Of a stretch of 64,000 bases of DNA, positions 1,383 through 53,501 are shown one piece after another (within the stretch, counting starts at the first letter, position 1; each line of letters begins with the position of its first letter). The notes under the pieces are model-generated. The model saw nothing but the letters and a program-made list of their open reading frames with translations, was not told where the DNA came from and made no database searches. The DNA lies in contig JBDRPO010000004.1 in NCBI GenBank assembly GCA_043827085.1, positions 2,847 to 66,846 of the forward strand. Direction: 5' to 3'. The DNA is from a bacterium. Its GTDB lineage: Bacteria; Patescibacteriota; Microgenomatia; UBA1400; UBA12108. A program made the position numbers and the translations under genes.

Positions 1383-2729
1383 TTATAAACCGTGTTTAAT
1401 ATCTGCAATTATTTTGGCCATCCCGGGGGCTGTCTTAATCTTCTCGGCTATCTTCTCCACGGCGTGAATTACCGTGGTGTGGTCGCGCCCCCCAAACAGC
1501 CTCCCCACCTGTTCATATGGTAAGCGAAGGTCATTATATAAAAGATACATCGCAGTATGTCTTGCCTCAGTGAGTGGTGCCTTGCGGCTCGCACTTATTA
1601 GCTCGGTTGGTTTAAACGAAAAATACTGAGCGGTCTTATTTATTACACTACTTGGCCTAATTCGTTGAGTTCTCCGCTCCGACTCTGCTCCAAAATACGC
1701 CCTGACTAAGTCGCTCGTGATCTCTCCTCCGCTTGGCAGCGCCTTTGTCAGAATTCCCTGCAAGGCGCCCTCAAGTTCACGAATGTTGGTCGTTGTCCGC
1801 TCGGCAATTAATGAAATTGCCTCGCTAGGGATGGTAATATTCAGGGACTCACACTTCTGGGTTAAGATCGCCACTCTCGTTTCAAAGTCTGGCGACTGGA
1901 TGTCAACCATCAGTCCCCCCATAAATCGCGATGAGAGCCTCTCTTCGAGCCGCGCAATTTCTTGTGGTGGTCGGTCAGACGTGAGGATCACCTGTCGCTG
2001 TGACATATAGAGCTCGTTAAAGGTGTGGAAAAACTCTTCCTGGATATATTCTTTGCCGGCGATAAACTGGATATCGTCAACCAGTAGTACGTTAGGGGCA
2101 CGATACTTCTTCTTAAACGCAGGCGTCTTTTTATTCTGTAAACTCGCAATTAAATCACTCCCAAACGTCTCCGCTGAGATGTACATAATGTTCCAGTCTG
2201 GGTGGTCGGCGTATATCGCATGCCCCACCGCCTGCATTAGGTGAGTTTTCCCCAAACCCACCCCGCCATAGATAAAGAGTGGGTTATAGCGTGTTCCTGG
2301 ACTTTTTGTTGCTCCTTGAGCTGCGGCGTATGCAAAATTATTCGATGGCCCAACCACATAAGTCTCAAATGTTAGTCTCGGATTTAGGTTGTGTGAACCA
2401 TCCCCCCTTACCGTAGTCTTAAGCTCGTCAAATAGTGGTGATGGTGGTTGTTTAGAACTAGTCGCAACATCCTTTCCTATTACGTAAGCCACCCCAACTT
2501 TCCCTCCGCAGATACGCTCTAAACTTCGCTTAATTTGTCCTTCATACCTCTGTCCCACCATTGTTTGGTGGTATGCAGACGGACAAACAATCGTGATCAG
2601 CTGCACTCCCCCCTCAAGCTTTTCGAGAGACTCAATTGAGAGTGGTTTAATCCAGGTTGGAAAATACACGGGTGATATCGCAAGCTCCAACTCTCCCAAA
2701 ACCGCCTTCCATATTGCTAAGATATCCAT
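1383..2729 (-). CDS. dnaA: Chromosomal replication initiator protein DnaA
   Basis: Walker A GVGLGKTHL, the AAA+ sensor motifs and a C-terminal DnaA-box-binding helix-turn-helix (RHTAMYLLYNDLRLPYEQVGRLFGGRDHTTVIHA). Confidence 0.97.
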   Translation of the reverse strand: MDILAIWKAVLGELELAISPVYFPTWIKPLSIESLEKLEGGVQLITIVCPSAYHQTMVGQRYEGQIKRSLERICGGKVGVAYVIGKDVATSSKQPPSPLFDELKTTVRGDGSHNLNPRLTFETYVVGPSNNFAYAAAQGATKSPGTRYNPLFIYGGVGLGKTHLMQAVGHAIYADHPDWNIMYISAETFGSDLIASLQNKKTPAFKKKYRAPNVLLVDDIQFIAGKEYIQEEFFHTFNELYMSQRQVILTSDRPPQEIARLEERLSSRFMGGLMVDIQSPDFETRVAILTQKCESLNITIPSEAISLIAERTTTNIRELEGALQGILTKALPSGGEITSDLVRAYFGAESERRTQRIRPSSVINKTAQYFSFKPTELISASRKAPLTEARHTAMYLLYNDLRLPYEQVGRLFGGRDHTTVIHAVEKIAEKIKTAPGMAKIIADIKHGL

Positions 2730-2824: not shown

Positions 2825-2959
2825 ATGAAACGCACTTACCAACCCAAAAAAATCAAGCGCAGAAACGTTCACGGTTTTATAAAGCGCATGAGTTCCCACA
2901 AGGGCAGGCTTGTTCTCTCCAGGCGTCGTCTCGCCGGTCGCGCCAAACTGACCGTATAA
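2825..2959 (+). CDS. rpmH: 50S ribosomal protein L34
   Basis: Hand-translated 44-aa [47 protein letters not shown]. This is the classic L34 sequence, divergent from dnaA and upstream of rnpA. It is below the ORF-track length cutoff. Confidence 0.9.
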
Positions 2960-2970: not shown

Positions 2971-3106
2971 TGGTCAGACTGCAACTCCCAAGTTAGTAAT
3001 CAACCTGTCGTCAGAAGGTCTGTCCTGCTCAGGAAACCCCGAGCTTGTCGAGGGGTGTTTAGTCGACTTCAATATACAAACAGGAGACTAGGACAGACCT
3101 TAAAGG
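2971..3106. repeat. MITE-like palindromic repeat, family A, full-length copy (~135 bp) between rpmH and rnpA
   Basis: Near-identical copy at 34613-34752 and an internally deleted copy at 17097-17160. Arms GGTCTGTCCTG and CAGGACAGACC form an inverted repeat. Confidence 0.8.
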
Positions 3107-3439: not shown

Positions 3440-3650
3440 AATCTACCGTCGCCTCTCCACTTTTCTAAAGTCGTTCACCCGCAATCTCGGTCTCTCAACG
3501 GGCCATTGTCGGTACGTTCCCACCTGTTCTCTTTATGCTAAACAAGCTTTTACCAAACATGGTTTGTGGAGGGGCGCTTGGTTATCTACCCAAAGACTGT
3601 TAAAATGTCACCCATGGTCTAAAGGTGGTTACGATGCACATCAGGAGTAA
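3432..3650 (+). CDS. yidD: Membrane protein insertion efficiency factor YidD
   Basis: 72-aa protein with the conserved CRYxPTCS..A and HPWSKGGYD motifs. It overlaps the rnpA stop. Confidence 0.85.
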   Translation: MYKIYRRLSTFLKSFTRNLGLSTGHCRYVPTCSLYAKQAFTKHGLWRGAWLSTQRLLKCHPWSKGGYDAHQE

Positions 3651-3700
3651 TAACTCCTGAGAAATGCCTCCAGATACGAAGTAATCTGAGAGGCCCCCGA
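3650..3700. repeat. Short hairpin repeat, family D (CTGAGAAATGYCTCCAGAYACGAAGTARTCTGRGAGGCC)
   Basis: Second copy at 6715-6765, which sits in frame inside the flippase-like gene. Confidence 0.7.
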
Positions 3701-4905: not shown

Positions 4906-6148
4906 TCTCCTAGTCGGTCTGATTATTTTTTTCTCTGCTACCCAATTTGGTTTGCATTTCTGGCCGCTCTCAACTCTTGTTTATGGCATCCGTATTGACT
5001 ATCTCTCCCCCGCCACCTACTTCCTCGACATCCTAATCATTTTTTATTTATCTCTCTCTTCACGCCTACCATCCACACTCTCTCGCTTGCATTCTATTTT
5101 CCCCATTCTCCTTGTCAATCTCATCTTTTCTCAAAACCCCGCCAGCACCCTCTCCTGGTCTCTCCACCTTGTTCTATATTTGTTGTTTATCTCATCTCTA
5201 CCCCTCAGCAGAATACGCAATACTCTATACAAAATATTGCCCATAGCAATCCTCTTCCAAGTCACGCTCGCGCTCACCCAAGTCACCATTGGTCATTCTG
5301 TTGGTGGGCTCATGTACTACCTTGGTGAACGAACCGTGGCTGTGGGTGCGCCTACGATCGCCCTTGCCATGTTTATGGATCATGTTGTACTACGTGCCTA
5401 TGGTACTTTCGGACACCCCAACGTGCTTGCTGGATGGTTAGTAATCGCTTTATTGATTACCATCCAACTTTGGAGACAACGCCAATCGTCAGTGGGGCTG
5501 ACCTTAAAGGACTCGAGCGCGATTAGTGTCCGAAAAGATCCTAGAAGGTCAGACCCAATGGGTACTAAAACCATTTGGGTACCCCTCATCCTCACCACCC
5601 TCGGCATTTTTCTCACTCAGTCTCGCGCCGCCGCCCTCACCCTCTTTGTTTTCATCATTCCTTTCTATCTACTTAAATCCCTCAAATCTCGAGTGATTTA
5701 TTTTGTACTTATTCTAGCTTCTAGCTTCTATCTTCTATCTTCTGGCACACTATTACGTGCGTTCGATCTCTCCTCTTCCGAGCGCCTTACTTTGCAGGGA
5801 GTCTCCCTTAAAGCAATTCAAGCATTTCCGCTTTTCGGCACCGGGGCGCAGGCTAGCATTTCTACCTACCCTACCGTCTCTCCCAATACTCGCCTCCTCC
5901 AACCCGACCACAATTCTCTTACCCTCTTCCTCTCCTGGTTCGGTATTTTTGGTCTCCTAGCCATTTTATACTCTCTGAGATTTCAATTTAAGAATTTGAG
6001 AATTTATGATTTTCGATTTGTCCTCCCACTCCTCCCACTTCTTCTCCTCGACCACTATCTCTTCACTTCCCCCCAAGGTTTATTTGTATTACTTCTATAC
6101 CCTGCCGTTGCGGTAAACTACTCTCATGCTCAAAAAAATCGCGAGTAA
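4760..6148 (+). CDS. O-antigen ligase (Wzy_C)-like polytopic membrane protein; true start uncertain, probably ~4830-4950
   Basis: 10-12 TM helices and an FLTQSRAAALTLFVF segment typical of O-antigen ligase domains. The N-terminal part of the track ORF overlaps jag and is probably not translated. A 75-bp palindromic repeat is inserted in frame at 5500-5578. Confidence 0.45.
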   Translation: MVVPAPSRPFPQPNAAKFILCFKMMQNSLVTPKATGKIGAYLSLPKLSSLLVGLIIFFSATQFGLHFWPLSTLVYGIRIDYLSPATYFLDILIIFYLSLSSRLPSTLSRLHSIFPILLVNLIFSQNPASTLSWSLHLVLYLLFISSLPLSRIRNTLYKILPIAILFQVTLALTQVTIGHSVGGLMYYLGERTVAVGAPTIALAMFMDHVVLRAYGTFGHPNVLAGWLVIALLITIQLWRQRQSSVGLTLKDSSAISVRKDPRRSDPMGTKTIWVPLILTTLGIFLTQSRAAALTLFVFIIPFYLLKSLKSRVIYFVLILASSFYLLSSGTLLRAFDLSSSERLTLQGVSLKAIQAFPLFGTGAQASISTYPTVSPNTRLLQPDHNSLTLFLSWFGIFGLLAILYSLRFQFKNLRIYDFRFVLPLLPLLLLDHYLFTSPQGLFVLLLYPAVAVNYSHAQKNRE

Positions 6149-7343
6149 TACCCTGGCACAACTTGTCGCCAAATTTTTTGGTGCTGGACTCACCCTCTTC
6201 ACCACCTACTATACGATCCGTCTTACCGGTCTCGAACTTTATGGTGATTTAACTAAAATTCTCGTCCTCGTCGCCATAGGTTTTACCGCCATCGATTTTG
6301 GTTTGAACGCCGAAGCAATTCGCTTTGGTACGAGTGAAAGCAAAATGCGTCAAGTTCTAGGTCAAGTTATCCTCGTTCGCCTAGTTCTTTCCGCACTCGT
6401 CATCCTTGCCCTCAATCTCCTTATTTTCTTTTTACCCGGCGGCTATTCGAGTGAAGTTAAATCCATTTTCTGGCTTGGTAGCCTGGCAATCATTTTTCAA
6501 GGCATCTATACCTCAGGCAATGCTTGGTTTCAATCCAATTTGTCATACTGGCGTCCTACCATCTCGGTCGTTGTCGGGTCACTGACCGGCACGGGTCTCA
6601 CCCTCTATTTTCTTGCGACCTCCCCCACCCTCTCTCATCTGGTTCTTGCCAACACTATTGGATACTCCGTCATGGCCCTCTGCTCTGTTTTCATGCTCTG
6701 CACATCAGGCGCGTTAGCGCCTGAGAAATGTCTCCAGACACGAAGTAGTCTGGGAGGCCTTCTCCGTCGCTCCCTAATTCTCGGGCTGATCTTAATTGCG
6801 AGCGTCTTTGCCTCAAAACTGGATACTATCATCCTCGGCATCTTCCGCCTCTCTAGCGAGGTTGGAGAATATGGTTTTGCCTACCGCATTTTTGACGTCA
6901 TTCTCGTCCTCCCAGTATTTGTCATGAATGCCGTCTATCCTCTCTTAATCAAAGATAGTGGAAACTCTTCAAAACTAATCAGTCATACCACAAAAAACAT
7001 GGCCTTCATTGGCGTCGCTACCGCCATTTTTCTCTGGTTTGCCGCCCCCTACGTCAATCTTGTCAAACCCGGCCTCACACTCACAGTAAGCGTCCTTCGT
7101 CTCCTCTCCCTCTCCCTTCCCCTCTTCTATGTGACCGCACCCCTTATGTGGTCTTTGATTGGGGCTCGTCGCGACAAAATAGTACTCAGCGTGTATGTTG
7201 TTGCTGCCCTGGGCAACGGTCTTTTAAACCTACTTTTTATACCCTCTTTTGGCGCCCCCGCCGCCGCCGCGATGACTGGTATTACCGAGTTATTTATTTT
7301 TTGCGCTCTGTTATACTTCTCTCGCAATGATTTGAGAACTTAA
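6126..7343 (+). CDS. Polysaccharide biosynthesis protein / Wzx-like flippase (MOP superfamily)
   Basis: 12-14 TM helices. The N-terminal ASNTLAQLVAKFFGAG..YG motif is typical of Wzx/MurJ-like flippases. A family D hairpin repeat is in frame at 6715-6765. Confidence 0.55.
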   Translation: MLKKIASNTLAQLVAKFFGAGLTLFTTYYTIRLTGLELYGDLTKILVLVAIGFTAIDFGLNAEAIRFGTSESKMRQVLGQVILVRLVLSALVILALNLLIFFLPGGYSSEVKSIFWLGSLAIIFQGIYTSGNAWFQSNLSYWRPTISVVVGSLTGTGLTLYFLATSPTLSHLVLANTIGYSVMALCSVFMLCTSGALAPEKCLQTRSSLGGLLRRSLILGLILIASVFASKLDTIILGIFRLSSEVGEYGFAYRIFDVILVLPVFVMNAVYPLLIKDSGNSSKLISHTTKNMAFIGVATAIFLWFAAPYVNLVKPGLTLTVSVLRLLSLSLPLFYVTAPLMWSLIGARRDKIVLSVYVVAALGNGLLNLLFIPSFGAPAAAAMTGITELFIFCALLYFSRNDLRT

Positions 7344-7348: not shown

Positions 7349-7795
7349 ATGATTACAAAACTATTATTGAATACAGACGGTGGTTCGCGCGGCAATCCCG
7401 GCCCTGCCGCCTACGGCTACGTTATCCGCGACATCTCTGGCCTGCCCGCCGAAGCCTCGGCGAAGGAGGGTACGGGAATCATTCTGGAAAAATGCGGTAA
7501 TTATATAGGCACTGCCACCAACAACACTGCGGAATACGAAGGCCTAATTGCGGGGATCAAATGGGTGCTCACCCACCACCCGCGCGCCATGCTCACAATT
7601 AAAATGGACTCACTCCTTATTGTCAATCAAATCAAGGGCCTATTTAAAGTGAAAAATCCCGGTCTCATTCCAAAATATCAAGAAGTGAGGGGACTATTAT
7701 CTCAACTCCCCAAGTGGTCTATCGAACACACCTACCGTGAAGGCAACTCCCTAGCAGATGAACTAGTCAATCTAACGCTTGATGCACGTACTTAA
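7349..7795 (+). CDS. rnhA: Ribonuclease HI-like (type 1 RNase H fold)
   Basis: DGGSRGNPGPAAYGYV...TNNTAEYEGL...D..L...REGNSLAD pattern (DEDD carboxylates). A family C repeat (GCCGAAGCCTCGGCGAAGGAGG) sits in frame at 7446-7470. Confidence 0.7.
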   Translation: MITKLLLNTDGGSRGNPGPAAYGYVIRDISGLPAEASAKEGTGIILEKCGNYIGTATNNTAEYEGLIAGIKWVLTHHPRAMLTIKMDSLLIVNQIKGLFKVKNPGLIPKYQEVRGLLSQLPKWSIEHTYREGNSLADELVNLTLDART

Positions 7796-10908: not shown

Positions 10909-11640
10909 ATGACTATTTTTGAACTCGCCGCTTCTACTCGCACGCTCTTTGGCCGGAAAACCAAACAGCTCAGGAAAAAGGGAATCGTCCCAGCGAACAT
11001 CTTTGGCAAAAAAATCAAATCCCTCGGCATAGAGATCGAAAAAGGGATTCTTCTAGACACCATGCGTAAAGCCGGCGAGACAGGCTTGATCCATCTCAAG
11101 ATCAAGGGTGACGATAAAACCCACCCCGTCCTCGTTTCTGGCTACGCTCAAGATCCAGTAACCGGCGACATGCTCCACGTCGATTTCCACGAAGTTGATC
11201 TTAAACAAAAAACCAAAGCCATGGTTCCTGTCAAAACCGTGGGCGTTTCTCCCGCAGTCGACACAGGCAACATCTTGGTTATGTTCAAAAATGAAATTGA
11301 AGTTGAAGCCCTTCCCACCGACCTCCCCGATGTCATTGAAGTTGATATTTCGGGGCTTGCCGAAGTTGGAGCCCATATTTTAGCGAAAGATCTCAAAGTT
11401 GACCGCTCCAAAGTTACGCTCGATATCGAGGGAGATGCACAAATAGTTGCCATCCAAGAGCCAACCAAAGAAGAAGTTGTTGTCCCCGCTGCTCCAGCCG
11501 AGGGCGAGGAAGCCGCTCCAACCGAGGGTGAGGAAAGCAAACCAGCCGAGGGCGAAACTAAACCGGAGGCTAAAGAAACCAAGAAAGAAGACTTGTCCGC
11601 CGAAGCCAAGGCTAAGGCGGGACCTAAGGCTGAAAAATAG
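10909..11640 (+). CDS. rplY: 50S ribosomal protein L25 / general stress protein Ctc
   Basis: N-terminal L25 beta-barrel (LFGRKTKQLRKKGIVPANIFG) plus a low-complexity E/K/A-rich C-terminal tail. GGAGG ribosome-binding site 8 bp upstream. Confidence 0.85.
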   Translation: MTIFELAASTRTLFGRKTKQLRKKGIVPANIFGKKIKSLGIEIEKGILLDTMRKAGETGLIHLKIKGDDKTHPVLVSGYAQDPVTGDMLHVDFHEVDLKQKTKAMVPVKTVGVSPAVDTGNILVMFKNEIEVEALPTDLPDVIEVDISGLAEVGAHILAKDLKVDRSKVTLDIEGDAQIVAIQEPTKEEVVVPAAPAEGEEAAPTEGEESKPAEGETKPEAKETKKEDLSAEAKAKAGPKAEK

Positions 11641-14244: not shown

Positions 14245-14772
14245 ATGTTACAAACTACTGACGAACAACTAGACACTATCAATGAAAAGAACGTTGTCAT
14301 TAGCTCAACCAGCAAGTCTATAGCCCACCGTGCCGGTCTCCTGCACAGGATCGTCATCGGTGAAATCGTAAACTCCAAAAGAGAATACTGTTTCGTCAAA
14401 CAAGCGGGTGATCGCCAAGATCCTGGTCAGTACATCTCTCCGATTGGTGGGCATGTCCAGGCAGGGGAGCGGATCGAAGACGCACTCTGTCGCAAGTGCC
14501 ATGAAGAAGTTGGCTTTACCCCGGTCGAACTAAAATATGTTGGTGGAACGATCTACAATCGCGAAGTTATCGGCCGTCGCGAAAACCACTTCTTTCTCGT
14601 TTACATGATTCGTCACAATGGCCCAGTCATCCTCAACCATGAATCAGTCGATTACCAGTGGTTCTCAGTGGAGAAGATTCAACAAACTCTGCAAAGTAGT
14701 CCTCAAACCTTCGATGCCGCCTGGCACCACGTGTTTAAAAACATCTTCCTTAAAATCTACCAAACTACTTAA
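14245..14772 (+). CDS. NUDIX hydrolase
   Basis: Nudix box GGHVQAGERIEDALCRKCHEEVGF (GX5EX7REUXEEXGU). Confidence 0.7.
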   Translation: MLQTTDEQLDTINEKNVVISSTSKSIAHRAGLLHRIVIGEIVNSKREYCFVKQAGDRQDPGQYISPIGGHVQAGERIEDALCRKCHEEVGFTPVELKYVGGTIYNREVIGRRENHFFLVYMIRHNGPVILNHESVDYQWFSVEKIQQTLQSSPQTFDAAWHHVFKNIFLKIYQTT

Positions 14773-17077
14773 TTTCCGGTTTACCCGCCGAAGCCCCGCG
14801 CCCTTCCGAAGCCTTTGGCGAAGGAGGGTTGGCGTAGGTGGGCCACTTCGACAAAATGAGCATGCCATCCTTCATTCTTGGCATTTCCTTCCAAATCGCC
14901 TCCGTCACAAACGGCATAAACGGATGCAGCAACTTCAATCCATTTAGTAACACGTGTCGCAAGACGGACAGTGCGACATCTTGATCTTTCCTCACCTTCA
15001 CTTTCTCGATATACACGTCGGCTACGCTATGCCACATAAACTCGTAGATTGTGTCCGCCGCTTCCGCAAAACGATATTTCTCGAGTAGGGTAGTTATTTT
15101 TGTAATTTTCTCGTTTAACTCTTTGATCATCACCTCATCTTCCGCCGCTAACCCCTTTATCTTGGGTCCATACCACGGGATTTTCCCCTCACACTTTTCC
15201 GTCATCATCAGATAAAACCGACTCATATTCCAAATCTTATTGGCAAAGTTCCGCATCGCCCGCACCTTGTCTTCTGATAAAGGCACTTTTCCTCCCTCCC
15301 CGTTCCCAAACAGGAGTGACATCCGGAAAGCATCAGCCCCGTATTTATCCACGAGTTCGATCGGGTTGATCACATTACCCTTGCTCTTACTCATCTTCTG
15401 TCCCCGGGCGTCAGTCACCGTCGACCACAAGTACACATTTTTAAAAGGCACCTCTTTCTTTGCGTAAAGTCCAAACATCATCATCCGTGACACCCACATC
15501 CGGAGAATGTCCGACATTGTTGCCATCACGTCAGTGGGGTAATGGCTCGCATACTCATTCTCTTTTAGGGTGACTAGGGGCCACTGTCCAGAAGAAAACC
15601 AAGTATCAAACGTATCCGTTTCCTGTAAATATTCGCCAGCAGGCCTAGTCTCATTTACCACATATTTTGCCTCTTTTGGTGCCGACAATGTTTGGAGTCC
15701 ACTCTCAATGTCTTCAAAACGATATGTCCTTAAAAGTTCTCCAATCTTCCCGCTCACCGGTTTTTTCTCTTTATCCAAAAACGTCACGTGTATTTTTTGA
15801 TTAATACTAGAGTCTGGAGTCTTACTACTGGCGTCTATTAAGTACCACGCCGGAATCCGGATTCCCCACGCCACTTGTCTGCTGATTGGCCAGTCATGCA
15901 TGACCGCCATCCAGTCGAGGATTTGTTTCTCAAACTTCTTGGGATAAAACTGTGTCTTTTTCTTTTTGATCGCCTCGACTACCGGCGGCTTCAAAGATTC
16001 CACCTTGATGTACCAGTTGGGCACCGTCATGGGTTCCATATCGCGACCACACTTGTAACAAACAGTAACAGCATGAAGATAATGCTCATCAATTTTTTTG
16101 ATTATTCCAATCTTCTGGAGTTCCTCAACTGTCTTTTCTCTCGCCACTTTTACTTTAAGTCCGTTTAGTTCTTTAACCTTTGCATCACTCGGAATTGTCA
16201 TCCTCCCCATCTGGTCGATCACCGAAATAGTCGCGAGCTTGTGGCGTTTCCCCGCCTCAAAATCATTGGGGTTATGAGCAGGGGTAATCTTTACGACTCC
16301 CGTCCCAAACTTCATGTCTACCATCGAATCCGCAATAACTGGGATTTTTCTGGTCGTTAAGGGGAGCTCCACTTCCATCCCCACAAACTTCGCGTATCGC
16401 TTGTCTTTTGGATGTACCGCGAGAGCCGTATCCCCAAACATCGTCTCTGGCCTGACTGTCGCCACGGTAAGCAGTCCGTATTTTATGTAGTAAAGCTTAT
16501 CTTCTCTCTCGTCATGTAATATCTCTAATTCAGCCAGGGACGTCCCACAATATGTGCAGTAGTTTACAAGGTAATCACTGCGGTATACTAAATCTTCCTT
16601 AACCATTCTCTGGAAAGTCTCAAACACAGTCGAGAGTACCCGGGAGTCTAGTGTGAACACACTTCGCTCCCAATCAGCGGAGAAGCCGAGTCGACGGAAC
16701 TGCTCAAAAATAAGTCCTGAATTATCTTCTACAAACTTGGCGATATTATCGTACAAAGTTTGTCGGTCGAAGTCCAGCCGGCTTTTACCCTCTTTTGATA
16801 GTTGTTTCTCGTACACAAACTGGGTCTCTAACCCCGCGTGGTCTCGCCCCGGTATCCACTCTGTCACGTAGCCTTGCATCCTTTTCCACCGGATCAAAAC
16901 ATCATCGATCGTGTACATCCCATGTCCCGCGTGCAAGCTAGCATTTGCATTCGGTGGCGGCATTAAAATCGTGAACGGTTTACCATGAGCGGAGTCGAAG
17001 GGTCTAAACGCACCGCTTACTTCCCACTCCTTATAAATCTCGCTCTCTACCTTGCTGTGTTCAAACCTCGATTCCAT
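14765..17077 (-). CDS. valS: Valine--tRNA ligase
   Basis: Class I aminoacyl-tRNA synthetase: HIGH-type PPPNANASLHAGHG (ValRS-type PPPN.TG.LH.GH), KMSKS (GQKMSKSKGNV) and an editing CP1 region. The C-terminal 20 aa are encoded by a family C palindromic repeat. Confidence 0.9.
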   Translation of the reverse strand: MESRFEHSKVESEIYKEWEVSGAFRPFDSAHGKPFTILMPPPNANASLHAGHGMYTIDDVLIRWKRMQGYVTEWIPGRDHAGLETQFVYEKQLSKEGKSRLDFDRQTLYDNIAKFVEDNSGLIFEQFRRLGFSADWERSVFTLDSRVLSTVFETFQRMVKEDLVYRSDYLVNYCTYCGTSLAELEILHDEREDKLYYIKYGLLTVATVRPETMFGDTALAVHPKDKRYAKFVGMEVELPLTTRKIPVIADSMVDMKFGTGVVKITPAHNPNDFEAGKRHKLATISVIDQMGRMTIPSDAKVKELNGLKVKVAREKTVEELQKIGIIKKIDEHYLHAVTVCYKCGRDMEPMTVPNWYIKVESLKPPVVEAIKKKKTQFYPKKFEKQILDWMAVMHDWPISRQVAWGIRIPAWYLIDASSKTPDSSINQKIHVTFLDKEKKPVSGKIGELLRTYRFEDIESGLQTLSAPKEAKYVVNETRPAGEYLQETDTFDTWFSSGQWPLVTLKENEYASHYPTDVMATMSDILRMWVSRMMMFGLYAKKEVPFKNVYLWSTVTDARGQKMSKSKGNVINPIELVDKYGADAFRMSLLFGNGEGGKVPLSEDKVRAMRNFANKIWNMSRFYLMMTEKCEGKIPWYGPKIKGLAAEDEVMIKELNEKITKITTLLEKYRFAEAADTIYEFMWHSVADVYIEKVKVRKDQDVALSVLRHVLLNGLKLLHPFMPFVTEAIWKEMPRMKDGMLILSKWPTYANPPSPKASEGRGASAGKPEIK

Positions 17078-17096: not shown

Positions 17097-17160
17097 TTGT
17101 TCGGACCGCAGTTCCCAGGCTAGTAAACAACAAGCCGTCAGAAGGTCAGACCTTATTGGA
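17097..17160. repeat. MITE-like repeat family A, internally deleted copy, abutting the VanW-like stop codon
   Basis: Matches the left arm and right end of the 2971-3106 and 34613-34752 copies (CCGTCAGAAGGTCAGACCTTATTGGAATT). Confidence 0.7.
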
Positions 17161-17161
17161 A

Positions 17162-18934
17162 TTATTGTGCTCCCGTTCCTCGCAAAAACACGCTTGCCCA
17201 AGGTCTGTACGTCGTCGAGAACGTTTTGTCCTGAATAGTTTCCCCATCTCGCACTACCTTGTACTCAAAACTAGCCTTCGCTCCCGCTGCCGCCCAGTCT
17301 ATTTGTTTCGTCGTCCCTGCAGGAAGTGAAGGATCATCTTGGTAAATTGTTGGGAGGGGAGGGGTAATTCCCCAAACTTTATGGTTCTCAATCGTTGCCA
17401 CTCGCCCGTCGCTCGTTCCATAAATCTCGATCACTAAATGTAATGCCTTGGGATCATTAATTGTCTGAATCAGAATATGCCCCGGCGTATCGTTTTTAAA
17501 CCGGAAATCTTTAGATGGTGCAATCACCGTCGCGTCGACCCCTGGCTTACTATCGAGTTCATAATAAGACACTCGGTACGCGTGTCCCCAGCGCTCGATT
17601 ATCGGCAGTCCTGCGCTTATTACAGCTCGAAACATAGTGGTCGATACTTGGCAAAGTCCCCCGCCATCCCCCAGGACCGTCCGGCCAGCCGAAATAATAT
17701 ATGCTGGTCGATACCCCGTTGCCGAGGACACCTCTCCCACCATTTTATTAAAACTAACTTCCTCTCCAGGCGCAAACAAAGTGCTATTGATGCGCGACGA
17801 GGCAAGTGCCACATTATAAATCCGATTCGGGATGGAATGTTGGTAATACGACTCGCCCCGCCCGATCCGCTCACGTATCCCTAGTTCATTCACTTTTTCT
17901 GTCGTCACCTTGGGTGGTGTCCTAGTGGCTGCAACCTCTATTGTCTCACTTTTACTCTTTCCCTCAAGTAAATTCTTAATTCCAGTTTGAATCCTCACTG
18001 CCGTCTCCTGATCACCAACAGTTATCCCGTCCCTCCCCGGTGCAAACTCTTTTACCTTTCCCCCAATAAACTCAAATTTTGCGTCCTGAGACTCCTTATT
18101 TAAGCTATCACCAAGTCCCACCACATAACCATTTACTATCGCCATATCCACCTCTTCTATCCCTCCTTCAGTCGAGAGAAAAGGTATTAGTTCTTTCCCA
18201 CCGAGAGAAATTTTTTCATCATCAAGCGTCATCACCATGCTTACTTGTGCCAAAGTCTCCGCTCTTGCCGTCAGCTCGGAGAGCTTCTCACTGGTGAGCC
18301 TCCTCTCTGCAATTTTTGTTGGGACAGCGATATCTTCGCTTCCTAGTTTGCTATAAACACTCCGTATTTCCTGGTCAAACATCTCGCTGTCCAAGACTAC
18401 TCCGTCGCTCCCATTGGTTACCCTTACCTTCTGCCCCACTATCTCAATCGTTGGTTCAACCGGCACGATCTCAATCGCCAAGCTTATTTCATTGATAAGC
18501 CCTTCCATTTTTTCTGTCTTCCCCTCCGCAATTTTGAGTGGGTAGCTTGTTTTCTTATTAATGAGTAAAAGTAAATAGTCTTCAATCTGTACTCGTCGTC
18601 CATAGTGGTAAGCCTCATTTAGTGTGTCATCGACTTCAAAATTAACCGATTCTTTTGGTGTTTCCCAACTGCTCCCATTAAAAACCAACTTCGCTTGATA
18701 ATTTTGAGTAGCCTCCAATATCCTTACTCGTGCCTGCTCTCTGGTCAGTCCAGCAACAGAGACCCCCGCCACCTCGATTCTCGGGTAAAACTTAGTGTGG
18801 TAGGTAAGTCTGGCAACCGCCACAAGTGTCATTATCCCAACAAGCATCCCCAATAAAAAATACCCAACAATCTTCCCGTGCCCCCAACGAAGCCCAAAAA
18901 GCGAAGTAGGGTTAGCTTGTTTCGTTTTCTTCAT
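17162..18934 (-). CDS. VanW-family protein (peptidoglycan-associated, N-terminal TM anchor)
   Basis: C-terminal VanW domain (PGEEVSFNKMVGEVSSATGYRPAYIISAGRTVLGDGGGLCQVSTTMFRAV) and one N-terminal TM helix. Confidence 0.8.
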   Translation of the reverse strand: MKKTKQANPTSLFGLRWGHGKIVGYFLLGMLVGIMTLVAVARLTYHTKFYPRIEVAGVSVAGLTREQARVRILEATQNYQAKLVFNGSSWETPKESVNFEVDDTLNEAYHYGRRVQIEDYLLLLINKKTSYPLKIAEGKTEKMEGLINEISLAIEIVPVEPTIEIVGQKVRVTNGSDGVVLDSEMFDQEIRSVYSKLGSEDIAVPTKIAERRLTSEKLSELTARAETLAQVSMVMTLDDEKISLGGKELIPFLSTEGGIEEVDMAIVNGYVVGLGDSLNKESQDAKFEFIGGKVKEFAPGRDGITVGDQETAVRIQTGIKNLLEGKSKSETIEVAATRTPPKVTTEKVNELGIRERIGRGESYYQHSIPNRIYNVALASSRINSTLFAPGEEVSFNKMVGEVSSATGYRPAYIISAGRTVLGDGGGLCQVSTTMFRAVISAGLPIIERWGHAYRVSYYELDSKPGVDATVIAPSKDFRFKNDTPGHILIQTINDPKALHLVIEIYGTSDGRVATIENHKVWGITPPLPTIYQDDPSLPAGTTKQIDWAAAGAKASFEYKVVRDGETIQDKTFSTTYRPWASVFLRGTGAQ

Positions 18935-18952
18935 CTCTGCTATTATGGTATC

Positions 18953-20461
18953 ATGCCAAAATTTCCTGATCCTACCAAAGACTACGGTGGCACACCCATG
19001 ACTGGCTCTATCGACTTATCTGCCGAAGCATCGGCGAAGGAGGCGGACATCCCCCCCACCCCGCTCTATCAAGCTCCAGAACCGACCGCCGCTCCCACTC
19101 CCGAACCGGCCCCCACACCTGGCAACCAAAGCGCCGGAACACCAGAAAATCAAACTCCCAAATCGTCGATTTCCAGTTCTCCGTTCCGCAATATGATGCC
19201 GATCTTAATCGGAGGTGGTGCCCTCATCCTTTTACTAGTCCTAGGGTTTACCATCGTTCCCAAATTCTTTAAAAAAGCCGAACCCATCACTCTCAACTAT
19301 TGGGGCCTTTGGGAATCAAGCTCCGTTATGCAAACCGTCATTGCCGACTACGAGAGTCAGAATCCAACCGTCAAAATCAACTACACCATGCAGAATATCA
19401 AAAACTATCGCTCGCGCTTTCTCACCGCCGGCACCCAGGGGAGTTCACCCGATATTGTTCGCATTCACAATACCTGGCTTCCCATGCTCAAAAAAAATCT
19501 CGCCCCCGCTCCCGATACAGTACTCACAACCAGTGATCTAAGTAGCTACTACCCCATCGTCCAAAAAAACTTCGTCAGTGGCGGCAAAATCTACGCCCTC
19601 CCGCTTGAAATTGACGGGCTAGCTCTCCTTTATAACGAAGATATCTTTAATGAAGCGGGTGCGACTCCTCCCTCCGACTGGAACACGCTGAGGAAACTTG
19701 CCTTTGACTTGACCAAAATCAACGCCGAAACCAAAATTATCGAACGCGCAGGGGTAGCGCTCGGTACCACCAACAATGTCGAACACTGGTCCGACATCTT
19801 GGGTCTCCTGATCCTCCAAAACTCCGGCAATCCAGGGAAACCCACCGACACTGCCGTTCAAGACGCTCTCACTTTCTACACCATCGTTTCCACCCAAGAC
19901 AAATCATGGGACTCTAGCCAACCCAACTCTGTCTATGCCTTTGCGACCGGTACCGTTGCCATGATCTTGGCTCCGTCCTGGCAAGTCTCCGAAATCAAAG
20001 CTATTAATCCTGATCTCCACTTTAAAGTCGCTCCCGCTCCCGTTTTGCCTTCTGCTAACTATGCCTGGGCTTCATATTGGGGTGAGGCAGTGCCACTCAC
20101 TAGTAAAAATCCTGAAGCTGCCTGGAAATTTATCAAATACCTAAGTACCCCCGAAGTCCTCCAAAAAATGTACGCCGGCGCCAGCCAAATCCGCGCTCTT
20201 GGCGAGCCTTACCCACTCACGAGTCTCAGCAGTACTTTAGCTAGCGACCCACTAGCAGGAGCATATGTTACTCAGGGTCCAAACTATGTGTCCTGGTATC
20301 TTGCCGACCGCACCTACGACGATGGGGTCAATACCGAATTTAGTAAGTACTACGAAGACGCCGTAAACGCCATCAATGATGGTTCGACTGTCGGGAGCAT
20401 CCTCAAAACTCTCGACGAAGGCATAGCCCAAGTTTCCGCCAAGTACCCCGAGGCAAAATGA
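18953..20461 (+). CDS. Extracellular solute-binding protein (ABC transporter substrate-binding protein, family 1-like), orphan
   Basis: N-terminal TM/signal anchor followed by an SBP fold (LNYWGLWESS...DIVRIHNTWLPMLKKNL). A family C repeat is in frame near the N-terminus (SAEASAKEA). No adjacent permease or ATPase gene. Confidence 0.65.
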   Translation: MPKFPDPTKDYGGTPMTGSIDLSAEASAKEADIPPTPLYQAPEPTAAPTPEPAPTPGNQSAGTPENQTPKSSISSSPFRNMMPILIGGGALILLLVLGFTIVPKFFKKAEPITLNYWGLWESSSVMQTVIADYESQNPTVKINYTMQNIKNYRSRFLTAGTQGSSPDIVRIHNTWLPMLKKNLAPAPDTVLTTSDLSSYYPIVQKNFVSGGKIYALPLEIDGLALLYNEDIFNEAGATPPSDWNTLRKLAFDLTKINAETKIIERAGVALGTTNNVEHWSDILGLLILQNSGNPGKPTDTAVQDALTFYTIVSTQDKSWDSSQPNSVYAFATGTVAMILAPSWQVSEIKAINPDLHFKVAPAPVLPSANYAWASYWGEAVPLTSKNPEAAWKFIKYLSTPEVLQKMYAGASQIRALGEPYPLTSLSSTLASDPLAGAYVTQGPNYVSWYLADRTYDDGVNTEFSKYYEDAVNAINDGSTVGSILKTLDEGIAQVSAKYPEAK

Positions 20462-21411
20462 AGTCCGTATCCAAGGGGACCGTCCTTAAAAGGAATTCCC
20501 GGCTGCAAGCCGAGAAGGGCTCGTCGGCGGACGGAAGGACAGTCCCCAATGTAACCCTTTCGATTCTCCAAACACTAAAGTATAGCGATCACTTTGACTT
20601 TCCCCTGACCGCTAGTGAAATCTACACTCGCCTTATTGAGATTAAAGCCTCGCGTTCCCAAATCGAGGCTACTCTTTCCGAGCTTTGCCGCTCAAAGAAA
20701 ATTGGCAAAACCAAAAACTCCTACCATCTCCCCCATCGTGAAACTCTTGTTTCCCGCCGTCTCAAATGCGCCAAACTATCCAAGCCTCTGCTTGCCCGTG
20801 CACGAAAACTATCATCTAAAATCTCACATCTAAAATCTATTCTTGCCATCTACTTGACGGGCTCTCTCGCCGTAGGCAACACTGACAGAGACTCCGATAT
20901 AGATTTGATGATTATTACCAAACCAGGTCGTCTATGGACCACCCGCCTCCTCCTCACTCTCTATACCACTCTACTTAATCTTCGCCGCACTCCACATTCC
21001 CTCAATAATTCAGGCAAGCTCTGTCTCAACCTCTACTTAACTCCAAATGCCTATCTGCTCCCTCCTGATCGAAGGTCACTCTATACAGCCTACGAACTCA
21101 TCCAAGCCGTCCCGCTCCACGATCCTATGGATACTCACTCCGCTCTCCTGTCCGCCAACTCTTGGATTCACAATTACCTGCCCAATGCGATCACAGGGTC
21201 TGACCTTGAAGGAAGTGCCCAACCCCGCCCTTACAGCGAGCGGGGAAGGTCAGACCCTATCGGAAACTTACTTGAATCTCTCGTCTATCATCTGCAATTT
21301 CTCTACATGCGCCCCCGCATCACTCGCGAATATGTGACCAAAGACTCTGCCTTCTTCCACCCCCACAATCCAGGCGAAATTGTAATAAATAAGCTTTCTA
21401 GGCTAATTTGA
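20458..21411 (+). CDS. Nucleotidyltransferase-domain protein (winged helix + Pol-beta-type NTase)
   Basis: GSLAVGNTDRDSDIDLMII is the G[SG]x9-13Dh[DE] NTase motif. The N-terminus carries an in-frame 84-bp family B repeat (20470-20553) and a second repeat at 21205-21250. Confidence 0.5.
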   Translation: MKSVSKGTVLKRNSRLQAEKGSSADGRTVPNVTLSILQTLKYSDHFDFPLTASEIYTRLIEIKASRSQIEATLSELCRSKKIGKTKNSYHLPHRETLVSRRLKCAKLSKPLLARARKLSSKISHLKSILAIYLTGSLAVGNTDRDSDIDLMIITKPGRLWTTRLLLTLYTTLLNLRRTPHSLNNSGKLCLNLYLTPNAYLLPPDRRSLYTAYELIQAVPLHDPMDTHSALLSANSWIHNYLPNAITGSDLEGSAQPRPYSERGRSDPIGNLLESLVYHLQFLYMRPRITREYVTKDSAFFHPHNPGEIVINKLSRLI

Positions 21412-22349: not shown

Positions 22350-23156
22350 ATGTTTGAAACCTATATCTACGCTCCTTTCTTCAATATTCTCGTCGGTCTC
22401 TATGAGATCTTGGGTGGAATCTCTCCAGACCTGGCCGACATGGGTATTGCGGTCATTATTTTCTCGATAGTTGTTCGTATTATCATGTTCCCACTTACCA
22501 TCATGGGTGAACGCTCCGAAGAAGAAAAGCGGAAGATCACCACAAAAATTGAAGAACTAAAACGCACTTACTCTCACGAACCAGTAAAACTCCGCGCCGA
22601 GATCAAACTCGTCATGCGCGACAACTTTAAACGAGTTTTCGCGACCACTTTTGAGCTCTTTGTGGGTCTCGCCATCATTCTCATGCTTTATCGCATCTTC
22701 ACGACCGGCCTTGAGGGTGCCGACTTCTATCTCCTCTACGACTTTATCCCTCGTCCAGACCACATTAACTTGATGTTTCTCGGCAAATACGATCTTAGCC
22801 ACACCAACAACACCCTCAACCTCATCCAGTCCATCATGATCTGTGTGGTTGAGGTTTTGTCCGCTCTCCGCTCTCCCTTTCCCGTTTCCCGGAAAGAAAA
22901 AATCCTTCTTCAACTTGTTCTCCCCGTCGGCTCCTATATTATCTTTATGTTTCTCCCCGCCGGTAAAAAAATCTTTCTGATTACTTCCCTCGCCTGGTCT
23001 GCCGTCTACCAATCAATCAGACTCATCCAAGATTGGGGTAATAAACTCTTAACTCGCTTCACACCAACTATTCAGACTGCAATTCCCACACCAGTTAACA
23101 ACGCGCCGTCAGAGGGTCAGACCTTGACGGAAGCGCCCACCCCGACCTCAAAATAA
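22350..23156 (+). CDS. Second YidC/Oxa1-family membrane insertase paralogue
   Basis: APFFNILVGLYEILG...GIAVIIFSIVVRIIMFPLT is the hallmark YidC TM1-2 region. The C-terminal ~20 aa come from a palindromic repeat (23093-23156). Confidence 0.7.
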   Translation: MFETYIYAPFFNILVGLYEILGGISPDLADMGIAVIIFSIVVRIIMFPLTIMGERSEEEKRKITTKIEELKRTYSHEPVKLRAEIKLVMRDNFKRVFATTFELFVGLAIILMLYRIFTTGLEGADFYLLYDFIPRPDHINLMFLGKYDLSHTNNTLNLIQSIMICVVEVLSALRSPFPVSRKEKILLQLVLPVGSYIIFMFLPAGKKIFLITSLAWSAVYQSIRLIQDWGNKLLTRFTPTIQTAIPTPVNNAPSEGQTLTEAPTPTSK

Positions 23157-23237
23157 ATCAGGAGGGAGGGTCTGACCCTATGGGTACTAGAGACCATCGA
23201 GCTTGCAATCCATCATTCGTGTTAGAATATCTATGCT

Positions 23238-28764: not shown

Positions 28765-28845
28765 GGACTGTCCTTAAAAGGAATTCCCGACCGCAAGTCA
28801 AGAAGGGCTCGCCAGCAGGCGAAAGGACAGTCCTCATTGGATAAC
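28765..28845. repeat. Palindromic repeat family B (GGACTGTCCTTAAAAGGAATTCCCG...CGAAAGGACAGTCC) immediately after the groEL stop
   Basis: Near-identical copy at 20470-20553. Shorter derivatives at 35440-35478 and 44290-44330. Confidence 0.75.
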
Positions 28846-32352: not shown

Positions 32353-32483
32353 TCTTGTCTGATATTTCCATCAAGCCTGAAGGTATGCTATCCTACTTTC
32401 TGGCATTATTCCACCCCGGTATTCCACCCCGGGTGTGTTAGCCTTGTAGTTTAGAGTTTTTTCATTATTGGTATACTCGAATC

Positions 32484-33161
32484 ATGCCAATCAGGAAAGC
32501 CCCACTCGTTACAGGAGAGTATTACCATATATATAATCGTGGCATCAATCGGCGCCGGACTTTCACTGCCGAGAATAATTATCGAGATTATAATCGCGCC
32601 ATTCAAACCCTTGTCTACTATCGCCCCACAACCAATAAATTGAGATACTCCCATTTCCTAGCTAGGCCCAAGGACGAACAAAAAGACATTCTAACCAAAC
32701 TAGCAGAATCACCCCATAGAGTTACAATCATTGCCTACTGTCTCATGCCAAATCATTTTCACCTTCTCTTAAAACAAGAGGAAGATGGGGGGATCTCCCA
32801 GTATTTAGCCGACTTTCAAAACAGTTACACCAAATACTTCGACTCCAAACATAAACGTTCAGGCGCTCTTTTTGACCGCCAGTTTAAAGCAGTACTCATG
32901 GAATCTGAAAATCAATTGCTCCACTTGACTCGCTATATTCATCTCAATCCCTATTCATCCAATCTAGTTACAAATGATCAAATCGCTTCTTATCCATATT
33001 CATCACTACCTGAGTACTTATCAGGCAACTATCATCTCGCCAATCCAGGGGTAGTGTTGGATATCAATCCTCGCCGCTACGAGTCATTCGTCCTAGACAA
33101 TGCTGACTACCAACAGCAATTAGAACGTCTCAAACACGTCAGTCTCGATCTAGAAGTATGA
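32484..33161 (+). CDS. IS200/IS605-like HuH Y1 tyrosine transposase (REP-associated tyrosine transposase / RAYT-like)
   Basis: N-terminal YHIYNRGINRR, HuH motif HFHLLL and a catalytic Tyr in RYIHLNP. 225 aa, larger than IS200 TnpA, as in RAYT-type proteins. Confidence 0.7.
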   Translation: MPIRKAPLVTGEYYHIYNRGINRRRTFTAENNYRDYNRAIQTLVYYRPTTNKLRYSHFLARPKDEQKDILTKLAESPHRVTIIAYCLMPNHFHLLLKQEEDGGISQYLADFQNSYTKYFDSKHKRSGALFDRQFKAVLMESENQLLHLTRYIHLNPYSSNLVTNDQIASYPYSSLPEYLSGNYHLANPGVVLDINPRRYESFVLDNADYQQQLERLKHVSLDLEV

Positions 33162-34612: not shown

Positions 34613-34752
34613 TGGTCGGACTGCCACTCCCAAATTAGTAATTAACCTACCGTCAGAAGGTCTGTTCTGCTCAGGAGATCCTGGCCGAAGGCCAAGACCT
34701 TTAGTCGACTTTAACATACAAGCGAGAGACCAGGACAGACCTTATTGGAATT
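34613..34752. repeat. MITE-like palindromic repeat family A, full-length copy after pyrH
   Basis: Aligns along its whole length with 2971-3106. Confidence 0.8.
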
Positions 34753-35299: not shown

Positions 35300-35493
35300 A
35301 TTTGGGGTTAATCTAGCCCCTGAAGTGCGTGATCCTAGCAAAGAATGTCGATTTGTCAATCAAATTTTGTTTTTTTCCCAGGCAGAAACCAAGTAATCCC
35401 AGAGGTAAATACATAAATATATCAAAGTATATCAAAATGTCTTAGAGGACCGTCCTTAAGACGAAAGGACAGTCCTCGTGGTACATTAGAGGT

Positions 35494-36567
35494 ATGCAAT
35501 CTTTCGCCATCAATGGTTTTGGCCGCATCGGCCGCCTAGCCACCCGGGTTTGGTGGCAATATCATCGTGAAGAACTCAAACTCTCAGCCATCAACACTTC
35601 AGGTTCTATGGATATCACCGGTTGGGCACATCTCCTCAAGTACGACACCACCTATGGCCTTTTCCCTGGAGAAATTGCTTTCGAGTCATACCAATCCGCC
35701 AAAGATGCCACCGACACAGATCCCCTCATCGGATACCTAATATTTGATACACAATACAAGGTACCTGTCTTCGCCCAGCGAGATCCTGCTAAAATCCCCT
35801 GGGGAAAGTATGAAATCGAGGTCGTTATCGAATCAACTGGCGCCTTCACGAGTGGTGAGAAAGCCAAGGCCCACCTCACAGGTGGTGCAAAACAAGTTGT
35901 CATCTCAGCCCCAGCCAAGGGGGGTAATGTCCCGACTAGCGTTATTGGTGTCAACGAAGAAAAAATCGTCAGCGCCGACCACCAGAACACAATCGCTGTT
36001 CTCAATAACGCCAGTTGTACTACCAACTGTGTCGCCCCCGTCGCCCTCGTCATACAAGAGCGCCTAGGGATCGCCAAAGCCGCCATGACCACCATCCATA
36101 GTTATACTGACGATCAAAACCTCCAAGATGCCTCCCACAAGGACTTGCGCCGCGCTCGGGCAGCCGCCCAGAATATTGTCCCTACTACGACTGGGGCTGC
36201 CATTGCGACTACCGAAACGATACCCGAACTCAAAGGTTTATTTGATGGGATTGCCCTCCGCGTCCCCACAATTACCGGCTCTCTCACTGACTTTAGCTTT
36301 GTCGTGAAGAGAAAAACCACGGTCGATGAGGTAAATAACTTCTTCCGCCAGGCCACGCTCATGGATAACCTATCCGGCATTCTCGCGGTCACCGACGAGC
36401 CAATCGTCTCCTCCGACATCATTGGCCACCGCGAATCCGCCATTGTTGACCTCGCCCTCACTCAAGTCATTGACGGTGATCTAGTTAAAGTTTTTGCCTG
36501 GTATGACAACGAATGGGGCTATTCAAACCGTCTTGTTGAAACTGTGATCGACATCGCCAACGCCTAA
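35494..36567 (+). CDS. gap: Glyceraldehyde-3-phosphate dehydrogenase (type I)
   Basis: INGFGRIGR N-terminus and the active-site ASCTTNC motif. Confidence 0.95.
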   Translation: MQSFAINGFGRIGRLATRVWWQYHREELKLSAINTSGSMDITGWAHLLKYDTTYGLFPGEIAFESYQSAKDATDTDPLIGYLIFDTQYKVPVFAQRDPAKIPWGKYEIEVVIESTGAFTSGEKAKAHLTGGAKQVVISAPAKGGNVPTSVIGVNEEKIVSADHQNTIAVLNNASCTTNCVAPVALVIQERLGIAKAAMTTIHSYTDDQNLQDASHKDLRRARAAAQNIVPTTTGAAIATTETIPELKGLFDGIALRVPTITGSLTDFSFVVKRKTTVDEVNNFFRQATLMDNLSGILAVTDEPIVSSDIIGHRESAIVDLALTQVIDGDLVKVFAWYDNEWGYSNRLVETVIDIANA

Positions 36568-51871: not shown

Positions 51872-51934
51872 TATAATAACAGGAGTTACGCACTCTCCCC
51901 TCAATTAGTTTGATTTGACAATTCATTACAGGAG

Positions 51935-53460: not shown

Positions 53461-53501
53461 TTTAGTCAAGGTCTGACCTTGCAGGGTGATAAACTACAAA
53501 T

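Follow-up and report, generated by a model that had tools for sequence, protein, structure and literature searches.

The 64,000-nucleotide stretch of DNA analyzed here (hereafter the window), from a bacterium of the Patescibacteriota (NCBI GenBank assembly GCA_043827085.1, contig JBDRPO010000004.1, positions 2,847 to 66,846), carries a short hairpin repeat that lies within protein-coding genes, among them the RNase HI-like gene at its positions 7349-7795. The element is 30 nt long, consists of a tag and an imperfect hairpin, and recurs in other bacterial phyla. On balance, we favor the explanation that it is a repeat resembling the repetitive extragenic palindromic (REP) elements and the Ssn-related motifs (SRM), that it is handled as single-stranded DNA, and that it is tolerated in genes through frame neutrality, with the peptides read from it as by-products.

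The unit comprises a 5' tag of the form CYTG (4 nt) and a 26-nt imperfect hairpin, N-CC-G-CC-GAA-GC-(CTTG)-GC-GAA-GG-A-GG-N', and is therefore 30 nt long. Among 86 copies, positions -7 to -4 before the core read C-Y-T-G in 54-59, followed by a variable base N and by CC, and the partner base N' stands directly after GGAGG. The tag tetramers included CCTG (23 copies), CTTG (15), TTTA (6), and others, and none was GTAG or CGTC. N and N' formed a Watson-Crick pair in 67 of the 86 copies against 33.7 expected under independence (chi-square p=2e-21). The pair was C-G in 32 copies, T-A in 28, A-T in 4, and G-C in 3, and 18 sequences departed from the commonest pair, C-G, on both sides; no pairing beyond N-N' was seen in these copies. 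The covariation score of the whole structure was reached by none of 500 shuffles, and the consensus minimum-free-energy fold gave the same hairpin, weakly, both as DNA and as RNA. At the gathering threshold, Rfam matched only tRNA and tmRNA in the whole window and in ten element-rich loci.

The length of 30 nt corresponds to ten codons and was also seen as the period of the head-to-tail arrays in L096 (L numbers are our labels for loci). Read directly from the sequence, the unit contains no stop codon in any of its six frames, which encode LPAEALAKEG, (C)PPKPWRRR, ARRSLGEGG, PSFAKASAG, PPSPRLRRA, and LLRQGFGGQ. Because it is ten codons long and open in six frames, the unit neither shifts nor stops translation when inserted in a gene.

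In the window, the core GCCGAAGCNTCGGCGAAGGAGG is matched exactly at 7448-7469 and 19022-19043, each time on the plus strand, where no occurrence is expected by chance (100 dinucleotide-preserving shuffles, up to 3 mismatches allowed). An earlier note on this DNA had described this motif as a 22-bp hairpin repeated at three sites. The repeated 22-base motif and the three sites were confirmed, but the actual unit spans 30 nt (7441-7470 and 19015-19044), and a fourth, decayed copy at 11592-11621 had been missed. The near-perfect palindrome proposed in that note (GCCGAAGC/GCTTCGGC) was inexact: the window copies are able to form a 5-bp GCCGA/TCGGC stem, and the structure conserved across the family is the longer 26-nt hairpin with G.A mismatches. 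The window thus holds two exact core copies and two variants, all on the plus strand and all inside open reading frames (ORFs). A covariance model built on the 30-nt hairpin recovered these four copies on the plus strand together with one doubtful relic, a density of 4-5 copies in 64 kb.

The first copy (7441-7470, plus strand) is an intact element found by exact pattern match, with the tag CCTG at 7441-7444 and the hairpin C-CC-GCCGAAGCCTCGGCGAAGGAGG-G, and gave the best covariance-model match (52.7 bits, E=1e-11). It lies in frame in the gene of the RNase HI-like protein (7349-7795, plus strand, 148 amino acids; Pfam RVT_3 and RNase_H, and orthologue alignment), where it encodes LPAEASAKEG in the context GLPAEASAKEG. 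The second copy (11592-11621, plus strand), CTTG-T-CC-GCCGAAGCCAAGGCTAAGGCGG-G, is decayed; it was detected in the repeat search as an 82%-identical copy at 11594-11621 and scored 38.8 bits (E=5e-8). This copy is located in the C-terminal tail of ribosomal protein L25/Ctc (10909-11640, plus strand, 243 amino acids; Pfam Ribosomal_L25p and TL5_C) and encodes DLSAEAKAKAG near the C-terminus. In the fourth copy (19015-19044, plus strand), CTTA-T-CT-GCCGAAGCATCGGCGAAGGAGG-C, the core is intact and matches the pattern exactly, and the outer stem is decayed (39.3 bits, E=3.6e-8). Its host is the gene for an ABC-type solute-binding protein (18878-20461, plus strand; Pfam SBP_bac_1 and SBP_bac_8), in which DLSAEASAKEA forms part of a low-complexity N-terminal region before the membrane anchor. 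The true start of this protein is probably the ATG near 18953. A possible fifth copy, GCCCCCAACGAAGCCCAAAAAGCGAAGTAGGG, strongly decayed and matched weakly by the covariance model (14.3 bits, E=0.15), lies at 18878-18916 on the plus strand, in the divergent region between a VanW-like gene and the gene for the solute-binding protein, and its status as a true copy is uncertain.

The third site, at the 3' end of valS, is a composite of two copies on the plus strand (14784-14842; covariance-model match 14784-14828). Its core variant, CCGAAGCCTTTGGCGAAGGAGG, differs by a 1-nt indel and is preceded by the half copy CCCGCCGAAGCC. The arms of an old copy occupy 14784-14795 (CCCGCCGAAGCC) and 14831-14842 (GGCGTAGGTGGG), and a younger hairpin at 14801-14828 (CCCTTCCGAAGCCTTTGGCGAAGGAGGG) is placed in the loop of the old one. 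The duplication reported for this site accordingly stands as two copies, which are nested rather than arranged in tandem. The gene encodes valyl-tRNA synthetase (ValRS; 14765-17077, minus strand, 770 amino acids; Pfam tRNA-synt_1 and Anticodon_1); in the minus-strand reading, the tail TYANPPSPKASEGRGASAGKPEIK is encoded by the composite, and the protein ends in PPSPKASEGRGASAGKPEIK. This tail and the plus-strand peptides GLPAEASAKEG and DLSAEASAKEA were as the note had translated them. Among variants, the conserved G.A position is A-T in L106, T-A in the young valS copy, and G-C in both copies in L25 proteins and in the copy adjoining the match in L034.

As judged from orthologue comparisons, the repeat is an insertion and no part of a conserved domain, because RNase HI and ValRS orthologues occur both with and without it. 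The best matches of both proteins are from Microgenomates/Collierbacteria-type Patescibacteria. When 33 close RNase HI orthologues (68-83% identity) were aligned, a single hypervariable loop contained the segment; the insert was wholly absent in about 8, for example DITSGAGIILEKCG, about 9 carried GLP..ALAKEG-type versions, and the others had eroded or different inserts. At the DNA level, the copies of the window, L122, and L125 align as CYTGCCCGCCGAAGCCTYGGCGAAGGAGGG, and L121 is without the segment. Compared with L121, the insert replaces one residue by 10, a net gain of 27 nt, which roughly fits a 30-nt unit. The presence and absence of the insert was patchy on a neighbor-joining tree calculated without the loop. 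AlphaFold2 predicted a confident RNase H fold (mean predicted local distance difference test score, pLDDT, 93), in which the sole weak block, residues 31-40 (mean 66) between strands b2 and b3, is the first copy. Among the three lineages represented by the window, L122, and L125, the RNase HI copies were identical at 28-30 of 30 positions, with 28 of 30 shared by the window copy and those of L122 and L125, whereas their flanks were 66-81% identical. In the RNase HI orthologues P0011, P0043, P0046, and P0056 (L123, about 335-380), the same loop holds another recurrent insert, EAGLTRGSHQAD (GCGGGCCTGACCCGCGGAAGCCACCAGGCTGAC), which may have arisen from the element by frameshift and divergence or may represent an element of its own.

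Close ValRS orthologues mostly have 733-742 amino acids, against 770 in the window, and most end in SKWPxxK without a tail. A few carry a single-copy tail of the type S/YAKATAGKPEVK, which corresponds to one reverse-strand copy and matches the old copy alone; the tail in the window extends twelve residues beyond it. The composite begins 12 nt beyond the stop codon of a convergent NUDIX gene, and ValRS therefore reads into an otherwise intergenic repeat. The NUDIX gene (14245-14772, plus strand) and valS overlap by 8 nt (14765-14772) only because valS reads through the repeat. The L25 gene of the relative L122 has no copy, and that of L125 has one elsewhere in the tail. The copies thus range from intact (RNase HI) to eroded (L25 and the old valS copy), and orthologues freely occur without them, which fits tolerated passengers. 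These results bear out the earlier note in that the insert occurs in unrelated proteins outside any conserved domain, and the comparison of RNase HI and ValRS orthologues that it proposed revealed both presence and absence. Its AEASAKEG-type peptide does not hold as an entity, since the same DNA is read in other frames elsewhere and is mostly intergenic in other phyla.

The distribution of the element was surveyed with the pattern GCCGAAGCN{3,4}GGCGAAGGAGG (19 fixed bases) in 596 Gb of a genome collection, in which we estimate roughly ten chance occurrences. The pattern matched in at least 119 contigs; about a third of the listed matches are plausible chance hits in high-GC coding DNA, and 82 of the at least 119 listed loci also had the CC directly upstream, which was not part of the search, and the covarying flanks. 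The element-bearing loci span about ten phyla with almost unchanged sequence, including Verrucomicrobiota, Kiritimatiellia, Planctomycetota, Omnitrophota, Acidobacteriota, Armatimonadota, Gemmatimonadota, several proteobacterial classes, and Bacteroidota (including the isolates Niastella yeongjuensis and Chryseolinea serpens). Within the Patescibacteria, it was found in Saccharibacteria, Gottesman-, Yanofsky-, and Staskawiczbacteria, and Paceibacterota. In-frame copies in these other Patescibacteria were located in genes for M24 aminopeptidase, ABC-F ATPase, Mur ligase (two), RluA, GatB/YqeY, and ArgRS, in varied frames and in both orientations to transcription, with PSFAKASAG, PPSPRLRRA, and LLRQGFGGQ among the peptides. 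In other phyla, copies were mostly intergenic or at gene ends, as singles, inverted pairs, or arrays, a distinction made from the longest open frame, which is crude and unreliable in high-GC genomes and used here only qualitatively. Regarding possible carriers, 4 of 14 matches in viral contigs look genuine, which indicates presence in phages and no enrichment, and plasmids gave only weak, partial matches. An all-against-all BLAST of ORFs within 700 nt of copies yielded only chance groups of neighbors in high-GC genomes, for example glycosyltransferases in which the coding sequence itself happens to fit the pattern. Full-text literature searches with the core DNA of both strands and with the peptides of all six frames retrieved nothing relevant, and no prior description of REP or in-frame repeats of this sort in Patescibacteria was found.

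Nesting was not confined to valS, and copies were found in the loops of other, locus-specific hairpins. Perfect stems of 7 bp or more flanked the copies at seven loci, where 0.6 loci were expected (maximum 4 in 200 shuffles). Two of the nested copies lie inside NTS/SRM-like hairpins (GTCATTCC...GGAATCC; L072 and L081), and several, including those in L050 and at the valS site of the window, sit within older copies of the same element. Flanking direct repeats did not exceed expectation under any definition of the boundaries tried, and hence no target-site duplication was detected. The orientation of the copies was biased when assessed against local GC skew in 8-kb pieces rather than mapped replication origins: the GGAGG-bearing strand was the C-rich strand at 55 loci and the opposite at 26 (p=0.0017), and at 14 versus 1 where |skew|>0.1 (p=0.001). 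Among Patescibacteria-like loci tallied by eye, this orientation was found in 9 of 10. In the window, the GC skew of the plus strand ranges from -0.08 to -0.30 throughout, and all four copies lie on this C-rich strand, even though the valS host gene is on the minus strand.

In other genomes, the element adjoins a small nuclease-like gene. An ORF of 80 amino acids (MxYVY...) that matches Pfam GIY-YIG (PF01541) and, in the PDB, the UPF0213 protein BH0048 is preceded in L003, L014, and L080 by a copy whose end lies 6-12 nt from the ATG. The ribosome-binding site of this gene is provided by GAAGGAGG of the element. Four further loci with GIY-YIG homologues were fetched without reference to the element, and three of them (Sphingorhabdus, a Rickettsiales metagenome-assembled genome (MAG), and one other lineage) showed the same layout: tRNA 3' end, inverted copy, spacer, forward copy, GIY-YIG gene. 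The fourth, from Desulfuromonadales, had only degenerate copies. Overall, copies flank the single-domain GIY-YIG gene in L003, L014, L080, L225, L226, and L228, and do so in degenerate form in L219. Some database entries for this gene begin with MPAEALAKEG because gene callers read through the element. The element also precedes the start codon of a phage amidase-like ORF in L209 by 6-12 nt. We additionally observed that the GIY-YIG cassette, about 400 nt long, directly follows a tRNA or tmRNA gene (L014 3685-4200, L228/L229 about 800-1270, L225, and L226), and that the tRNA 3' end is repeated downstream of the gene, an arrangement also seen in tRNA-targeting integrative elements.

These observations can be joined in a mechanism in which a trans-acting enzyme would recognize the repeat as single-stranded DNA and propagate it. 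The repeat would insert where DNA is exposed as a single strand, for instance in the loop of a hairpin or on one of the replication strands, and its insertion would leave the target site unduplicated. In the gene-dense genomes of Patescibacteria, frame neutrality would therefore let copies survive in surface loops and terminal tails, as seems to have happened here in RNase HI, L25, ValRS, and the solute-binding protein, and AEASAKEG or PSFAKASAG peptides would be by-products without a role at the protein level. The partner enzyme of the family is, we infer, most likely the 80-amino-acid stand-alone GIY-YIG nuclease, and any role in the organism studied here is likewise inferred.

Several observations weigh against this explanation. 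The hairpin is thermodynamically weak (z-scores -0.3 to -2.3), and no GIY-YIG gene of this subfamily was found in the window or in the Patescibacteria loci examined. The strand bias refers to local skew, and the window skew has no sign change at the dnaA/dnaN locus (57-2729), so that dnaA marks no skew switch here. The metagenome scan gave three close relatives of the RNase HI locus among the matches listed and no clean pair of empty and filled alleles, which leaves the exact insertion boundaries and the target preference without such a reference. In addition, the contrast between the RNase HI copies and their flanks suggests either repeated re-insertion or conversion at one site or a constraint on the DNA, and argues against a purely neutral view; this conservation could reflect a function in place rather than selfish spread.

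A function in place could take the form of a DNA recognition tag, kept by selection because a site-specific nuclease acting on single strands would use it to police DNA that enters the cell or is being replicated; Patescibacteria possess competence machinery and are naturally transformable. The nearly invariant sequence across phyla and the consistent strand orientation agree with such a tag, as does the conservation of the RNase HI copies, and NTS and SsnA in Neisseria transformation provide a precedent for a nuclease and its target tag (Chenal et al. 2025, PMC11893778). We nevertheless consider this unlikely, as decay is visible in L25, in the older of the two valS copies, and in the outer stem of the copy in the solute-binding protein, the insert is freely lost or eroded among orthologues, and the density is low, with no nuclease gene found nearby. 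An improbable further alternative is a hairpin that acts in RNA by presenting or masking the perfect Shine-Dalgarno sequence GAAGGAGG, either as a translational leader or through intragenic ribosome pausing or internal initiation. Its 3' arm, AAGGAGG, does stand 6-12 nt before the starts of the GIY-YIG genes and the L209 ORF, and the 5' arm CCGCC can pair with GGAGG; but the element occurs in both orientations in genes, with the CCUCC strand in the mRNA of ValRS, L017, L034, L045, L077, and L100, no in-frame start codon follows the copies in RNase HI or the solute-binding protein, the orientation tracks GC skew and not gene direction, and no Rfam family was matched.

Mobilization by the REP-associated tyrosine transposase (RAYT)-like Y1 (IS200-like) transposase encoded in the window at 32484-33161 (plus strand), which would make the element a true REP-type element, is a quite remote prospect in our view. 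This ORF matches Pfam Y1_Tnp (E=7e-10) and, with 56 bits below the cut-off of 80, the NCBIfam model for REP-associated tyrosine transposases, and the tag-plus-hairpin anatomy, the lack of target-site duplication, and the strand bias would all suit such an enzyme. However, no copy flanks the Y1 gene, the tag is not GTAG, no Y1 gene recurs beside the element among the 119 listed loci, and the gene more plausibly serves another repeat family of the window. The proposal that selection favors an AEASAKEG-like linker peptide, which arose or was recruited independently in several proteins, is hardly credible. Although three of the four window copies use the same frame and yield similar hydrophilic peptides, unrelated genes use the same codon at 6 of 7 positions, ValRS and many other proteins use other frames, many copies are intergenic or in arrays, and the insert is absent in many orthologues and sits in a disordered loop. 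The usage of six frames already contradicts this proposal.

Beyond the favored explanation of a frame-neutral repeat handled as single-stranded DNA, a wider reading, tentative as a whole, is that the element and the 80-amino-acid GIY-YIG protein constitute an undescribed, pan-bacterial Ssn-like pair, whose hairpin is nearly invariant over at least ten phyla; the element would then be among the smallest known DNA parasites. It would be passed on through single-stranded DNA, both at replication forks and in hairpin loops, would cross from one phylum to another, and would colonize essential coding sequences of Patescibacteria, with the result that the same few decapeptides are written into many unrelated proteins. 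If so, CYTG would be a third tag class of bacterial tagged hairpin repeats, unusually conserved across phyla, and a length of 3n with six open frames would be a simple rule for the life of DNA inside essential genes. The element would then be a source of the recurrent odd low-complexity inserts and tails in Patescibacteria proteins and would account for mis-called N-terminal extensions such as those of the MPAEALAKEG entries in public databases; annotators should be warned that such peptides are no domains. The small nuclease and its 30-nt substrate would also be nominated as a candidate site-specific cutter of single-stranded DNA.

Other repeats and mobile elements are present in the window. 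A second family of about 69 nt occurs at 2971-3039, 17098-17166, 23069-23137, and 34613-34681, and its 25-nt sub-unit, which includes a GGTCAGACC-type palindrome preceded by CGTCAGAAGG, also occurs at 5543-5567, 21244-21268, and 23165-23189; this family has one orientation throughout, lies mostly at gene boundaries, and has no Rfam match. A third family of about 75 nt (GGACCGTCCTTAAAAGGAA...GGAAGGACAGTCC) is found at 20477-20551, 28765-28839, and 35444-35477. One of its copies lies in the N-terminus of ORF 20458-21411 and another just past the groEL stop codon, so that a second element, too, combines an intragenic with an intergenic site. A 61-nt repeat with 84% identity occurs at 3635-3695, upstream of a yidC-like gene, and at 6699-6759, inside ORF 6126-7343. 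Upstream of the Y1 ORF (32408-32454), there is a tandem TATTCCACCCCGG motif, a 34-nt stretch recurs at 53432-53465, and the Y1 protein may serve one of these other hairpin repeat families. The window also contains an insertion sequence (51880-52980) with perfect 49-bp terminal inverted repeats (51880-51928 and 52932-52980) and a DDE transposase split in two ORFs (51935-52582 and 52582-52917). Directly next to the only tRNA gene of the window (37354-37426, minus strand) lies a free-standing LAGLIDADG endonuclease-like ORF (36564-37325, minus strand).

Among known systems, the element resembles the Rickettsia palindromic elements (RPEs), which are about 100-150 bp long and confined to Rickettsia, in being palindromic and in residing in frame at permissive surface sites of functional genes in a reduced genome. 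Unlike RPEs, it measures only 30 nt, extends over about ten phyla, and can be translated in each of the six frames without a stop. With IS200/IS605 transposition it shares the hairpin, the lack of target-site duplication, and an orientation bias relative to what may be the replication strand, but it lacks both a transposase gene and ends that differ between left and right, being a single 30-nt hairpin without a defined cleavage or target motif. The element does not fit a miniature inverted-repeat transposable element dependent on a DDE transposase, as no target-site duplication was found for any boundary tried, nor does it fit a DNA uptake sequence (DUS/USS), given the density of only 4-5 copies in 64 kb. 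Uptake sequences typically occur roughly once per kb.

The closest parallels are the NTS/SRM repeats and the REP elements. SsnA, the nuclease of the NTS/SRM system, consists of a single GIY-YIG domain; it binds an oriented repeat that forms a hairpin and cleaves one of the two strands in single-stranded form, its gene is typically flanked by repeats, and NTS rarely occur inside genes (2%) (PMC11893778). Partner nucleases of SRMs are assigned to the CDD family cd10448; for the GIY-YIG protein linked to the element, the matches obtained are PF01541 and BH0048. The element likewise is a short (20-50 nt), oriented hairpin repeat with a conserved non-palindromic 5' part, many copies, and a range of many phyla, it adjoins a stand-alone GIY-YIG gene of about 80-95 amino acids in genomes other than that of the window, and its proposed action is on single-stranded DNA. 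In contrast to NTS/SRM, it has no GTC/CGTC tag, the G.A mismatches in its short stem are conserved, its sequence hardly varies among phyla and does not co-diverge with each nuclease, and all four copies in the window lie within ORFs. When the search sequence published for SRMs, HGTCWYN(0-2)YYVSBRHN(0-5)WNVSBRGN(0-2)RNCYNB, was used as a regular expression, it had no matches in both consensus forms of the element, the window, and the flanks of the linked GIY-YIG genes. The search itself works, as it does match true SRMs elsewhere in L072. In this Staskawiczbacteria MAG, SRM/NTS-matching hairpins (TGTCATCCCCGCGAACGCGGGGATCCAG) were observed at 1943-1970 (plus strand) and 2859-2886 (minus strand), and a further SRM-like hairpin bears the 30-nt element in its loop.

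REP elements sometimes lie within ORFs, carry GTAG or CGTC tags, and have RAYT transposases as partners (Di Nocera et al. 2013, PMC3733652). Like REPs and REPINs, the element combines a tetranucleotide tag with an imperfect palindrome of 20-40 nt, occurs as singles, inverted pairs, and clusters without target-site duplication, and is occasionally read in frame. Nevertheless, its tag is CYTG, it flanks no RAYT gene, it is common to many phyla whereas REP families are species-specific, and its intragenic location is the rule in the window, whereas REPs are predominantly extragenic. Taken together, the element works like a REP or an SRM, yet is a member of neither family as defined, because it falls outside the published definitions of both.

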